A DNA stretch of 64,000 bases from an uncultured Alphaproteobacteria bacterium (lineage in GTDB: Bacteria; Pseudomonadota; Alphaproteobacteria; Rs-D84). Below the pieces are notes generated by a model that was given only the letters and a program-made list of their open reading frames with translations, had not been told where the DNA came from and made no database searches. Shown here piece by piece: positions 9,184 to 14,146 of the stretch (positions within the stretch are counted from its first letter, which is position 1; each line of letters opens with the position of its first letter). The stretch covers positions 136,997 to 200,996 of the forward strand of contig CANSHD010000002.1 of assembly GCA_947646585.1 (NCBI GenBank), written 5' to 3'. A program made the position numbers and the translations under genes.

Positions 9184-10854
9184 TTATCGGGTCAGGGGCT
9201 GGCTCGGCTCCACATGACAGCCGTTTTCGCGCATCAATTTTACCCCGTTCATCCAGCCCTTTAAAAAGACTTTGCGTTTCGGATTATGCTCGGTAATGCT
9301 AACGTAATACCGTTGCAGAGTGTCCCAATACGCGTTATGCAAATCGCCGTTAAAATTCTCGGCGGCCTGAATCAGTTCGCTGTCAACCTTGCCTGTTTCC
9401 TTTAATCCCAGCGTCTTTTGCAGCTTTTTTACGCCCGCTCCCGGGCCGGATGCGAAATCGCCGCGCAGTACGTCGCCGCGAATAGAATCGGGCAGTTTGT
9501 CAATGCCCTTGGCCTTGTAAAATCGTTCGTATGTGCGGTCTTCGGCGCCGCCGCGCGTTAATTTGCGCACGTCTATGTCCCGATTGTAATTTTGTGCATA
9601 TCCGTAACATGTATAGCCGCCCGGATCGTTGGGATGACTGCCGCAGTCGCCTTCGACGCGAAATATTTGAACCATCATTTTTTCAAATGCGGGGTCTATC
9701 TGTTCGTATTTACCGGTTGTTAATATTTTGTTTTTGAAAACATTACTGCGCGTGGACGGTGTGCACGGGCCGTCATGTACGCGGTTGTTCGCCATTACCG
9801 TGGCCGGGGCCGATGACCTATTCGGAACCGCAGCGGGTGCGGCGGTGACAGGTTCCGGTCCCGTCGTCGGGGTGGTTGCGGGCGCCATTGCAATGGTTGG
9901 CGTGTTTTGCTGTGCGGGTGTGTTGGCGGTGGGATTTTGTGACGGTTGGGTGCCGGATTGCCCGCCTTGGTTTTGTTTTGCGGGATTGTCGCCGATTGCG
10001 ATAATTTCCTGTTCGCGGCCACGGTCTTGGGGGCATCTGGTCTCATCAAAATACTTGTCGCAGTATTCGTCATTCGACATCTGTATCGCATCAATCTGGC
10101 GCCGTGCCTCAAGTGTTTCAAGTTGACGCGTTAAGGCTTTTTCCTCGCTTTCCACCTTTATACCGTTATACGCCTTTGCATCCTTGTACGGTGCGTATCC
10201 TGCGGCCAGGTTCTCCATACGGTCCGCGAACGATACGTCGTTTATCGTTGTCGGGAATGCCGCTTTTGCTATATGCTCCGTACCCGCACCATTCTGCGAT
10301 TGTAATTGCTGTAACTCTATCGCCCGTTCTTTTACGTCATTGGCCCAATCGGGGACCTTTGACGCATAGGGATTATTTATTTTAAATTCATTCTGCTGTT
10401 GTATATTAGCCGCACCGGTTGCCGCCGGGAATGCAGACGGTTGCACAACGTTTGCGTATTGTTTTACGTAAGTATCAAAAGCTGTATCAATATACCCCGC
10501 GCAGGACGATGCATAGTTATGCCCCGGCATACGCGACAGCTCCAGCATAATTGCGGGCCGTACATCCGCCACCCGCATGCCGTTACAGTTATTGTTCGCG
10601 GCACATTGTGATGCGACTAAATTTGTAACGATTGTTTGGCAATCCTGTGTATCAACCTCAGGCCCTGTGACATACACAGGCGATGGCATGATGCGTTTAT
10701 TATACTGCTGACCCGGGCTCCAGAACGGATTGGTGGAATAGTTTTGAACATTTTGAATCTGGCCGTATTGCGACAGCGGTACCGCGCGCGCGGCGCAGCA
10801 ACATGCGGTTGCTGCGCAATAAAATGTTAAAAGACCAAATGTCGTTTTTTTCAT
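9184..10854 (-). CDS. Secreted two-part protein. Unknown N-domain (paralog of 14146..15060), Pro/Thr/Gln linker, then a C-terminal GH108 lysozyme-like plus PG_binding_3 module.
   Basis: The C-terminal EGDCGSHPNDPGGYTCYGYAQNY...YWDTL...GVKKLQKTLGL...KGWMNGV matches the GH108 and peptidoglycan-binding-3 pattern (EGGYxxDPxDPGGxTxxGI ... GW.NR). Start taken at MKKTTFG (10854), forming an ATGA overlap with the upstream stop. Confidence 0.7.
   Translation of the reverse strand: MKKTTFGLLTFYCAATACCCAARAVPLSQYGQIQNVQNYSTNPFWSPGQQYNKRIMPSPVYVTGPEVDTQDCQTIVTNLVASQCAANNNCNGMRVADVRPAIMLELSRMPGHNYASSCAGYIDTAFDTYVKQYANVVQPSAFPAATGAANIQQQNEFKINNPYASKVPDWANDVKERAIELQQLQSQNGAGTEHIAKAAFPTTINDVSFADRMENLAAGYAPYKDAKAYNGIKVESEEKALTRQLETLEARRQIDAIQMSNDEYCDKYFDETRCPQDRGREQEIIAIGDNPAKQNQGGQSGTQPSQNPTANTPAQQNTPTIAMAPATTPTTGPEPVTAAPAAVPNRSSAPATVMANNRVHDGPCTPSTRSNVFKNKILTTGKYEQIDPAFEKMMVQIFRVEGDCGSHPNDPGGYTCYGYAQNYNRDIDVRKLTRGGAEDRTYERFYKAKGIDKLPDSIRGDVLRGDFASGPGAGVKKLQKTLGLKETGKVDSELIQAAENFNGDLHNAYWDTLQRYYVSITEHNPKRKVFLKGWMNGVKLMRENGCHVEPSQPLTR
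10055..10785. repeat. Direct repeat copy 1 (about 730 bp, roughly 95% identical to 14265..14995)
   Basis: Nucleotide alignment by eye of 10141-10380 against 14341-14580 shows only scattered mismatches. The encoded N-domains are near-identical. Confidence 0.7.
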
Positions 10855-12649: not shown

Positions 12650-14146
12650 TTAGTCGTCAATTCGTATCACATCTTCAATAATCATTGCGGAATCGTTTAT
12701 ATCCAATGTGTCCGGGTCGTATATAAAGTATCCGATATACATGTCAATGTCGTCCTCGTTCCAGTCGCACGGGCTCTTGTCCTGAATTTTGGACATGTTG
12801 GCTTTGACTTTCTTTATCTGGTTTGCGTCCATTACCAATTTTTTGCCCGTGTTTATCTCGTAGAGATGATAATCGGATTCTTTCACGCAATACTGTTTGC
12901 CCATGACCGGCTGTAACACGTTCGCATTCAGCATGTCCAATTTCCCTTTCCAGCCCGTCGGACTGTCGCCGCATACGGTATAGCAACCCTCGTTATGGTC
13001 CACGTCCTGGCAGTTTACTATTTCCTTGTCGGCGTCACTGGACAGCAGACTGTACCCCAGGCCGGCGCCCTTGCCCCCCTGGTATATCAGGGCGCCCGTG
13101 GCGGCCAGTGCGGTCCATTTGTTTTTTAGGTTTTTGCCCACAATCTTTACATAATTCTTTACGCCGGCACGCAGAACGCCCTTGCCCGCATAGTTGTTCC
13201 AACCGCGCATGTTGGCCTTTAAACCCAGTTTTACCGCGCTTTTTGCCAATTGCTTTCCACCCTGTTTGCTTAATCTTTTTGCGGCCGCCTTGCCCCCGAC
13301 TTTTGCCAGGGCGCGCGCGGATGCCTTCAGGCCCGCGCCCAATGCCGCGCGTCCCGCGGCAACGGCGGCGCCGCCGGCGCCCCCGCCATAGAATGTTGCC
13401 ACGGCCGCAACGGCGGTGACTATCCAGCCGACCGCGTCGATTAACCCCTCGTAAGAACGATTGTTTTCGCAAACCAAGGCGCCGTATTTACGCATGGTCT
13501 GGTCCATTACTTCGGATATTTCTTCCAAAATGGCGTCCCAATCAACGTCGATGCCCAGGTCTTTTTCTTCGACCTTGCCCGTCAACTCGCTAATCGGTTT
13601 TTGATATTTGGTCAGCTGCGGGTCGTTGTCGCCCAGGAAATTGATTACAAACGCGTCATCCAGCCATGTTTTATCGGACGCCTTGTGCGCGCTTACATAA
13701 CTGGTCGCCAATGCTTTGAAAAAGGCTTCCTGTTCTTTTGTGTCCGGGCCCAAAGCCTTTATTATCAATTCTATGATTTCCGCATCGCTCATCATTTCGG
13801 CGTTGCCGGAATCGTTGTTCAACGGAACGCTGCCGCCGTTTTTGATGATTTCGCGCACGGTCGCCCAGTTTATTGCGATGTTTACGCCGTCAATTTGTTC
13901 GGATACGTCATGTTTGAACTTGTCGGCATAGTTTTTGCAGTTCGGTGACGACAGTATTGCATTTGCCGTCGCCTGGTTAAAATTTACGGTAAGGCCGCTT
14001 TGCGCATCGGTAAAAGACCGGTACAGTTCGCATGCAACCAGGCCGTCGCAATCGCCGGAATATGTTTGGCAATCATTAGAGACGGCAAATGCGCCGGTCG
14101 GAATTGCAAAACATAAAAGCATCAGCAGATTGCGTAAGAATTTCAT
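12650..14146 (-). CDS. Secreted protein of unknown function (498 aa), paralogous in architecture to 10851..12617
   Basis: Signal peptide MKFLRNLLMLLCFAIPTGAFA. Central GWIVTAVAAVATFYGGGAGGAAVAAGRAALGAGLKASARALAKVGGK followed by a K/A-rich stretch. Cys-rich C-terminus. Confidence 0.6.
   Translation of the reverse strand: MKFLRNLLMLLCFAIPTGAFAVSNDCQTYSGDCDGLVACELYRSFTDAQSGLTVNFNQATANAILSSPNCKNYADKFKHDVSEQIDGVNIAINWATVREIIKNGGSVPLNNDSGNAEMMSDAEIIELIIKALGPDTKEQEAFFKALATSYVSAHKASDKTWLDDAFVINFLGDNDPQLTKYQKPISELTGKVEEKDLGIDVDWDAILEEISEVMDQTMRKYGALVCENNRSYEGLIDAVGWIVTAVAAVATFYGGGAGGAAVAAGRAALGAGLKASARALAKVGGKAAAKRLSKQGGKQLAKSAVKLGLKANMRGWNNYAGKGVLRAGVKNYVKIVGKNLKNKWTALAATGALIYQGGKGAGLGYSLLSSDADKEIVNCQDVDHNEGCYTVCGDSPTGWKGKLDMLNANVLQPVMGKQYCVKESDYHLYEINTGKKLVMDANQIKKVKANMSKIQDKSPCDWNEDDIDMYIGYFIYDPDTLDINDSAMIIEDVIRIDD

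Follow-up and report, generated by a model that had tools for sequence, protein, structure and literature searches.

Two Sec-exported proteins with an inserted hydrophobic and basic module in a conserved operon of Rs-D84 Alphaproteobacteria: candidate components of an envelope complex

In this study, we analyzed two adjacent genes, designated A and B, on a 64,000-nucleotide stretch of DNA from an uncultured alphaproteobacterium of the Rs-D84 lineage (GenBank assembly GCA_947646585.1, contig CANSHD010000002.1, positions 136,997 to 200,996; this whole stretch is called the window). In both proteins a basic arm, flanked by hydrophobic stretches, lies between an acidic N-domain and an acidic Cys-bearing C-domain. 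The genes belong to a six-gene operon that also encodes an A24 protease, a module designated X, a muramidase of the GH108 family and a small Cys-rich protein. We favor the reading, held with less than even confidence, that A and B are inner-membrane-tethered extracytoplasmic proteins of a clade-specific envelope complex working with the muramidase. An earlier note on this DNA, made from the sequence alone, had called A and B paralogous and likened their layout to that of membrane-inserting toxins or translocators; most of the layout was borne out, and neither the paralogy nor the likeness to toxins found support.

On the favored reading, each of A and B would consist of a single acidic extracytoplasmic domain of the disulfide type, into whose chain a module has been inserted. 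This module would comprise a marginally hydrophobic Gly/Ala helix, a Cys-free basic amphipathic arm of variable length and a short return stretch. It would cross the inner membrane of the producing cell as a helical hairpin and leave the basic arm in the cytoplasm, in keeping with the positive-inside rule, and the hairpin would tether the periplasmic domains of both proteins to the membrane. A, B, X and the small Cys-rich protein, with GH108 where it is present, would then make up a clade-specific envelope complex. Its likely task would be local opening or remodeling of the peptidoglycan while a structure of the envelope or for cell contact is built or maintained.

The order Rs-D84 (Candidatus Enterousia) is widespread in animal and human guts, and how it acquires metabolites is an open question (PMC12306168). 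A clade-universal, tightly conserved operon of exported proteins, which brings together an orphan intramembrane protease, a muramidase and two proteins whose unusual modules are probably membrane-active, is among the few concrete candidates for the envelope machinery of such a lifestyle. Even a conservative reading defines several new protein families, and if the hairpin is real, the architecture is unusual, with a membrane hairpin and its cytoplasmic basic arm placed in a loop of a Sec-exported domain.

Domain layout of A and B

Both genes were found on the minus strand as open reading frames (ORFs) of the lengths that had been claimed, 588 amino acids (aa) for A and 498 aa for B, and each protein was divided into six segments (Table 1). 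The charge layout is nearly identical between A and B, and the layout of both is conserved among homologs. The earlier note had listed a signal peptide, an acidic domain, a Gly/Ala-rich hydrophobic stretch and a basic helix-prone region. These first four elements are right; it overlooked the hydrophobic return stretch and the acidic, Cys-bearing C-domain, and of the peptides that it quoted, that of A begins at residue 275 and that of B at residue 249.

The N-terminus of each protein reads as a basic n-region, a hydrophobic core with a KD19 (the 19-residue Kyte-Doolittle average) of 1.7-1.8 and a small-x-small site. This reading, together with conservation among homologs, points to Sec-type signals on A and B. 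The N-domains that follow are acidic in both proteins, as had been described (Table 1). The first hydrophobic segment reaches a KD19 maximum of 1.84 in A and 1.83 in B, with family medians of 1.79 and 1.71, respectively, which are above the classical Kyte-Doolittle threshold. Small residues in it are invariant (T277, G279, G281 and G286 in A and G256 in B), and the alignment of A also has E266, D270 and T274 as invariant positions. The region after it is extreme in charge, and its amphipathicity at the period of a helix well exceeds that of shuffled sequences, with z=5.0 for residues 286-445 of A and z=2.8 for residues 262-342 of B. The second hydrophobic stretch is weaker, with a family median KD19 of 0.8-1.0 and a 12-residue core of 1.3-1.7 in the A and B families. 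In A, G454, G465, Y468 and D469 of this stretch are invariant, and G455 and Y458, which like G454 stand at its onset, are near-invariant (at least 90% of sequences). The C-terminal domains of both proteins bear conserved cysteines.

The module is inserted in a loop and very probably interacts with a membrane

A related locus, L032, encodes at 9005-10393 a fusion of X and B of about 455 aa without the whole hydrophobic/basic module. In this protein, 'IICENTGY' is joined to 'NECTNVDKNEGCY' (NEGCY motif) via about 15 aa with no hydrophobic segment, whereas 135 residues lie between the invariant CENNRS and VNCQD motifs of B. The operon of L032 also lacks gene A. Because this ortholog bridges the corresponding motifs by so short a linker, the module is, judging from the aligned sequences, an insertion into a loop of one domain. 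The chain must therefore leave the domain and return at the same point.

The N- and C-domains hold every Cys of A and B, and the 157-aa arm of A and the 80-aa arm of B have none. The insert in the core of A is flanked by a single conserved Cys on either side (C219 and C550), and the same was observed in distant A-like proteins. Several observations make it very likely that A and B have both ends outside the cytoplasm: the Sec signals, this distribution of Cys, the C-terminal fusions of A and the presence of the C-domain of B in exported fusions.

The hydrophobic stretches are located at the base of the arm beside the globular domain, and the basic helices at its tip. Such an arrangement is what a membrane hairpin with its loop in the cytoplasm would show, and it fits a hairpin in the producer's own membrane better than the hydrophobic tip of a toxin. 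The net charge of the loop is positive in every family member, with medians of +19 (A) and +16 (B), and its length ranges from 19 to 370 aa family-wide and from 125 to 370 aa in the A family.

AlphaFold models were examined for both proteins. The model of A has a mean predicted local distance difference test (pLDDT) score of 61, with the N-domain, a helical hairpin at 300-380 and a C-terminal helix and beta-hairpin at about 80; helical hairpins are predicted at 282-388. The model of B has a mean of 69, with residues 22-230 and 370-498 at 80-95 and residues 232-366 below 50. In the two models, scores below 50 fall on the hydrophobic segments (about 28-47), the basic region of B and the distal arm of A (386-514). 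The hydrophobic module is not packed against either globular domain, in a part of the models that is of low confidence. The earlier note had named burial of the stretch as a core helix of an ordinary periplasmic fold as evidence that would refute its view, and the predicted models, of low confidence in this part, place it in no such position. Since the module is conserved, marginally hydrophobic, continued by amphipathic basic helices and not packed in the models, it very probably interacts with a membrane and is not a core helix of the usual buried kind.

The operon is conserved and its products are modular

The six genes are tightly spaced or overlapping, and they are bounded by one promoter-like site and one terminator region; no minus-strand terminator-like hairpin was found inside the operon. 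The start of B overlaps the stop of X, and the gene of the muramidase, X'-GH108, overlaps the end of A. The muramidase has an N-half that is 88% identical to X. Its GH108 domain scored 37.5 bits in Pfam (cut-off 21.2), its PG_binding_3 domain scored 23.4 bits, just under the cut-off of 24.6, and the protein also matches a PHROG endolysin family (2.4e-28). The GH108 motif reads 'VEGDCGSHPNDPGGYT', which we take, from knowledge of the family, to be the catalytic EGG motif, and its Glu is retained. A 745-nt direct repeat brackets B and A; one copy corresponds to gene X and the other to the N-half of X'-GH108. If the two copies recombined, B and A would be lost and an X-GH108 gene would remain.

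In a scan of one genome per species, B was found in 35 genomes, from human, mouse, ruminant, horse, bird and termite guts, all titled Candidatus Enterousia or uncultured Alphaproteobacteria/Rickettsiales. The named homologs of A and B all come from gut metagenome-assembled genomes called 'Alphaproteobacteria bacterium', and homologs of the two proteins were confined to Rs-D84. The order GcrA, divergently transcribed, then A24-X-B-A-(GH108)-small was observed in all related loci with enough flank, and the same gene order is found on the chromosome across the 35 species-level genomes, with vertical conservation of the genes. Median identity to the window proteins across species is 72% for the small Cys-rich protein, the best conserved member of the operon, 63% for GcrA, 58% for A, 55% for A24, 48% for B and 46% for X. 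No relatives of A or B were found in phage and plasmid collections, and the local guanine-cytosine content is ordinary; a mobile-element origin was rejected on these grounds. The genes behave as core genes and not as hypervariable or arms-race genes.

Products of the operon are linked by fusions in the relatives. A carries a GH108 muramidase at its C-terminus in P0031, the sole A+GH108 fusion, and C-terminal Cys-rich domains in P0281 and P0264. X is fused in frame to the core of B in P0217, P0218, P0226, P0230 and P0233, and to an A-like core in P0331, P0336, P0337, P0339 and P0346. The window's own muramidase gene is an X+GH108 fusion. About a dozen proteins consist of X and the C-domain of B alone, with no hydrophobic or basic segment, and X also bears other variable Cys-rich C-termini. 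The 170 homologs of X are all from the same clade, and none has a Pfam domain. The operon products thus appear to behave as a kit of exchangeable Sec-exported modules. As regards polymorphic toxins, the C-termini of X are variable, yet the locus is core and syntenic, without phage or plasmid matches, and no immunity candidate was identified. A functional linkage between these proteins is indicated by the tight operon, the recurrent gene order and the fusions of X with B, X with A-like cores, A with GH108 and X with GH108.

FtsEX-EnvC-amidase and TolA-type tethers have an inner-membrane anchor, long charged helices and a periplasmic domain, and work with cell-wall hydrolase partners. A and B may be regarded as analogous in that they are linked to a peptidoglycan hydrolase by operon or fusion. 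Unlike in those tethers, the anchor of A and B would be an insertion in a Sec-exported domain instead of an N-terminal transmembrane (TM) helix, and there is no ATPase partner; no sequence or fold relationship between them was found.

Several observations weigh against the proposed tether and complex. With the simple 19-mer sum on the Hessa scale, the first segment scored +3.4 to +3.8 kcal/mol (+3.75 in A), and the TM helices of the neighboring A24 protease, at -0.1 to +2.5, are all better. The second segments never score as a TM helix on this scale, their KD19 is sub-threshold, and the return stretch of A has only about 12 hydrophobic residues. AlphaFold yields no confident model of the module. 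In the hydrophobic helix of A, the invariant E266, D270, T274 and T277 lie on one face, and the helix is more conserved than a passive anchor needs. This unusual conservation, with polar residues invariant on one face, points to a particular function in addition to anchoring. The proposal also leaves the A24 protease unaccounted for. The earlier note had proposed to look for co-occurrence with GH108 in other genomes: the GH108 gene adjoins in 10 of 36 loci and is absent from most, and A is missing in five lineages. A muramidase-centered function is therefore not a universal core of the system.

Searches for known families and the possibility of latent membrane insertion

Scans of A, B and X against Pfam, NCBIfam, PHROGs and PADLOC gave no significant family, and sequence searches of the PDB with single proteins and profiles of A and B gave nothing meaningful. 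The fold search that had been suggested was run with Foldseek on the AlphaFold models: none of the matches of A and B to the PDB, or of B to viral structures, was below E=0.2. The best overall match, at E 0.22, was non-significant, and AhlC was at E about 2.4. The predicted structures showed no fold similarity to solved pore-forming toxins (colicin, ClyA/Hbl/Ahl and Tc). The statement that there are no recognizable homologs holds for characterized families; it does not hold for uncharacterized metagenomic proteins, among which 798 homologs of A and 124 of B were found, none with a Pfam domain. An exhaustive profile search of 1.84 billion representative proteins returned only 137 relatives of A. 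The weakest match to the A profile, P0377, a coiled-coil protein with multiple TM segments, gave no informative family and was rejected as probably compositional. The families of A and B thus appear to lie outside everything described by the libraries searched, a newness by exclusion.

The only family that recurred in scans of B-family members was SseC (PF04888), which matched weakly in 6 of 24 members with a best E of 5.2e-4. In B itself, residues 205-359 scored 19.4 bits, under the Pfam gathering threshold of 30.2, and the Pfam scan gave no SseC match in A. The SseC/YopB/IpaB/EspD translocators resemble A and B in having two hydrophobic segments, a loop of 60-100 aa and helical or coiled-coil flanks. 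A and B differ from them in their cleavable Sec signals and in the large acidic Cys-containing domains at both ends; the scores of the B family are all under 30.2 bits, no genes or chaperones of a type III secretion system (T3SS) are nearby, and there is no fold match. Neither the operon nor the large ORFs of the window contained type III secretion or chaperone domains. A circular bacteriocin identity (AS-48/uberolysin) was also considered and rejected, as neither the family model (TIGR03651 of NCBIfam, E=0.97, 9.8 bits against a cut-off of 30.7) nor a solved protein matched significantly; the PDB match to AS-48, at E 0.11-0.85, is a compositional likeness only.

These searches bear on an alternative in which A and B are fully exported by Sec, the Gly/Ala helix is shielded by the basic helices, and the module later inserts in the cell's own outer membrane or in a partner or host membrane as a pore or conduit, with GH108 breaching the partner wall. 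We consider this unlikely. The hydrophobicity is marginal enough for passage through Sec, the conserved helix has the polar face described above (E266, D270, T274 and T277), and the arm is cationic and amphipathic. The weak matches to SseC, and to AS-48 and cupiennin, two membrane-active cationic peptides (E about 0.1-0.9), are recurrent, and X with its variable C-terminal domains looks like an effector scaffold. The lifestyle would also suit it, since Rs-D84 genomes are under about 1 Mb and transporter-poor, and metabolite uptake from partner cells has been proposed (PMC12306168). However, the searches gave no significant sequence or fold likeness to any pore-former or translocator, and 80-157 aa at a net charge of +19 to +25, coming straight behind a hydrophobic helix, classically act as a stop-transfer signal. 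Colicin pore domains, ClyA, Hbl and AhlBC likewise place an Ala/Gly-rich hydrophobic helix beside amphipathic helices and can have several operon-encoded components, but their hydrophobic element is at the tip of the bundle, whereas that of A and B is at the base of the arm. A route across the outer membrane is not evident in the operon or the window, and the module is wholly absent in some lineages. The resemblance to toxins or translocators that the earlier note had seen thus lacks support from homology, fold or context: a sub-threshold SseC hint is all that speaks for it, and the Sec signals and the chromosomal, syntenic, housekeeping-like conservation speak against it.

A decidedly unlikely alternative is that the module stays out of membranes altogether. 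Its Gly/Ala helices would then pack as the base of a long antiparallel helical stalk that spans or organizes the periplasm or binds anionic envelope polymers. Domain II of TolA, which is helical and Lys/Ala-rich, would be a comparable case. The basic helical region is Lys/Ala-rich and variable in length, being expanded in P0236, P0240 and P0281, the helical hairpins of A are predicted at a pLDDT of about 80, and the second hydrophobic stretch is weak. Against such a stalk, a first segment with a KD19 of 1.7-1.8 followed by a positive cluster normally arrests translocation, the arm lacks Cys while both flanking domains have it, and AlphaFold does not bury the helix.

The A24 protease and its possible substrates

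All 32 of the 32 orthologs of the A24 protease share its catalytic motifs, IPD and G(M/L)GDxK, without variation, and wherever a locus has enough flank the gene directly precedes X. Motif scans of the window and of 707 kb from 38 related loci detected no ORF like a prepilin or Flp pilin, nor did genes for pili or type II secretion turn up there. We weighed A and B themselves as substrates. The basic arm, a Gly and a hydrophobic core would in this case form an internal signal like those of class III. The enzyme would act at the cytoplasmic face, cutting A behind G454/G455 and B behind the Gly that precedes ALIY, and would give pilin-like C-terminal fragments with a hydrophobic helix at their start. 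An apparently active A24 heads the operon in every genome examined, the window and related loci offer no prepilin or Flp gene, type IV pilus genes are reported only for another lineage of the clade (PMC12306168), and G454 is invariant, with G455 and Y458 near-invariant, at the start of the stretch. As in class III (prepilin/Flp) signals, a basic region and Gly precede the second hydrophobic stretch. The element of A and B differs from them in being internal rather than N-terminal, neither G/FxxxE nor G/xxxxEY is present, and no pilus assembly genes were seen. In addition, the Gly of B is variable, and the operons of L029 and L032, which lack the hydrophobic/basic module, keep an intact A24 gene. 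These points make cleavage of A and B by A24 very improbable.

Two further proposals about this protease were rejected. A and B are not canonical type IV prepilins or Flp pilins: their N-termini read as ordinary Sec signals, and the internal Gly-hydrophobic stretches are without Glu. Cutting of the first hydrophobic segment would need an inverted topology of A24, which appears to be ruled out by the positive clusters RRR and RKK borne by its two catalytic Asp loops, as in canonical enzymes.

A broader version joins cleavage to feeding. The six-gene operon would encode a new kind of apparatus by which an obligate symbiont poor in transporters makes contact with other cells or feeds. A24 would cut A and B internally, and the released C-domains would assemble with X, the small protein and the muramidase into a surface structure to breach the wall and membrane of the partner. 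Rs-D84 genomes lack biosynthesis of amino acids, nucleotides and lipids, as well as standard transporters and flagella, and probably rely on partner cells (PMC12306168). We give this version only a very slight probability.

Release as a bacteriocin or toxin pair by muramidase-assisted lysis, in a type 10 secretion-like system or the remnant of a phage lysis cassette, is barely credible: a phage-type GH108-PG_binding_3 muramidase adjoins, endolysins of this type are muralytic (PMC7188820) and NCBIfam gave a weak match to a holin-associated muramidase, but this match scored 24.9 bits against a cut-off of 240, no holin, immunity candidate or mobile-element context was found, the genes are core, syntenic and moderately to highly conserved, and GH108 is absent from most loci. 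In the operon, a holin-like small TM gene is absent. The pairing of GH108 with PG_binding_3 is known from the phage endolysin-type muramidases ElyA1 and ElyA2 (PMC7188820), and it is the neighbor at 9184-10854, not A or B, that resembles them. Unlike ElyA1 and ElyA2, the muramidase of the window has a signal peptide and the clade-specific X module.

A and B are not detectably paralogous

BLASTP of A against B gave nothing (E>1), and hhalign of alignments of 23 and 24 sequences gave a probability of 1.25%. When alignments of 183 and 116 sequences were compared, the best local score of 30.7 was inside the block-shuffle null of 22.6-35.6. The paralogy of the pair was therefore rejected at the sequence level, by BLASTP, small and large profiles, domain-restricted comparisons and reversed and block-shuffled controls; no similarity rose above the shuffle controls. 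The sole likeness between A and B is in short collinear motifs at equivalent places: before the hydrophobic segment, NDYYV...W...TFGGG in A and NNRSY...W...TFYGGG in B, and in the C-terminal beta-hairpin, CNVDIYVV in A and CDWNEDDIDMY in B. A and B would thus be either non-homologous or diverged beyond detection.

In a sister lineage, P0345 (locus L038, 8001-9554) occupies the operon position of B. Its first 110 residues or so match B (E=2e-11), and its remainder matches A (E=2e-24) and its own downstream neighbor, the A ortholog (1e-27). Because the core of P0345 matches this neighbor, the two adjacent genes at these positions in the L038 lineage are, by sequence comparison, true paralogs. 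The A-like core gave no match to the core of B, and the B of the window shares only the N-module with P0345.

A divergent A-like subfamily was observed in other Rs-D84 lineages (P0331, P0336-P0340, P0342, P0345, P0346 and P0348). In its members an X module or a B-type N-module stands before the A-type core, and the hydrophobic/basic module is Ala/Thr/Ser-rich and far less basic.

Features of the operon and other genes of the window

The features of the operon are collected in Table 1. The scans gave no family match for its small 105-aa protein.

Table 1. Features of the operon in window coordinates, with the segments of A and B.
Feature	Residues	Window position	Strand	Description
Best sigma-70-like promoter match		15617..15645	-	Upstream of A24 gene; 10/12 hexamer matches, consensus match only
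A24 type IV prepilin-peptidase-like aspartyl protease		15084..15569	-	PF01478, E=2.9e-15; first operon gene
Gene X		14146..15057	-	About 303 aa from likely start; putatively exported Cys-containing module, Q-rich coiled-coil tail
Gene B	1-498	12650..14146	-	ORF, 498 aa; six segments, signal peptide through acidic Cys-rich C-domain
B signal peptide	1-21			Putative cleavage between AFA and V, after residue 21 (sequence reading)
B acidic N-domain	22-231			Net charge -17, isoelectric point (pI) 4.4
B hydrophobic/basic/hydrophobic module	232-367	13046..13453	-	Apparent insertion between invariant CENNRS and VNCQD motifs
B first hydrophobic segment	232-262			31 aa, Gly/Ala type
B basic region	263-342			19 K/R, zero D/E, pI 11.9, no Cys
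B second hydrophobic stretch	343-367			Weaker, Gly-rich
B acidic C-domain	368-498			131 aa, net charge -13, five conserved Cys
Gene A	1-588	10851..12617	-	ORF, 588 aa; six segments, signal peptide through acidic C-domain
A signal peptide	1-25			Putative cleavage between SHA and V, after residue 25 (sequence reading)
A acidic N-domain	26-258			Net charge -19, pI 4.3
A first hydrophobic segment	259-288	11754..11843	-	LQWISYLEIALDVAITVATFGGGAAVLGAT; 30 aa, conserved, marginally hydrophobic Gly/Ala
A basic amphipathic helical arm	289-445	11283..11753	-	39 K/R vs 14 D/E, pI 10.9, no Cys
A second hydrophobic stretch	446-470	11208..11282	-	KLAKLEEAGGLLYGAITFAGDMYDW; weak, short core signal-peptide-like
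A acidic C-domain	471-588			118 aa, net charge -19
Gene X'-GH108		9184..10854	-	556 aa from likely start; X-like N-half, Pro/Thr/Gln linker, GH108 muramidase, PG_binding_3
Small Cys-rich basic secreted protein		8801..9118	-	105 aa; last operon gene
Terminator-like hairpin		8779..8800	-	Directly 3' of small gene; second at 8723-8743
745-nt direct repeat		10051..10794 and 14257..15003		Brackets B and A; 88% identical overall, 91-96% over most

The wider window is ordinary chromosome, with genes for CorA, S1, trigger factor, ArgRS, RuvB and SecA and tRNA genes. A search for pilus or secretion genes elsewhere in the window found only housekeeping genes, for example those of SecA, RuvB, ArgRS, trigger factor and S1. 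Beside the operon, GcrA is divergently transcribed. Directly after GcrA, at 16278-18335 on the plus strand, a 685-aa protein is encoded that has an N-terminal coiled coil, a Cys-rich C-end and Pro-rich regions flanking one strongly hydrophobic TM helix. It has no family match, and its gene adjoins GcrA in all related loci.

On the minus strand, positions 4923-7553 encode a secreted protein of 876 aa whose N-part is Thr/Ala/Arg-rich and of low complexity and whose body is very rich in Cys, and this gene is syntenic with the operon in many genomes. A 797-aa paralog, 32% identical, is encoded at 54886-57279 on the plus strand; neither protein has a Pfam or NCBIfam match. The plus strand at 7429-8268 encodes a homolog of TMEM175-type potassium channels (Pfam E=6.7e-28), for which the listed ORF start is probably too far upstream. 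At 41980-46248, also on the plus strand, a probable large surface protein of 1422 aa with the Listeria-Bacteroides repeat (Flg_new) is encoded. Four tRNA genes (Leu-CAG, Ala-CGC, Leu-TAA and Val-CAC) are located at 8331-8717 on the plus strand, just past the operon terminators.

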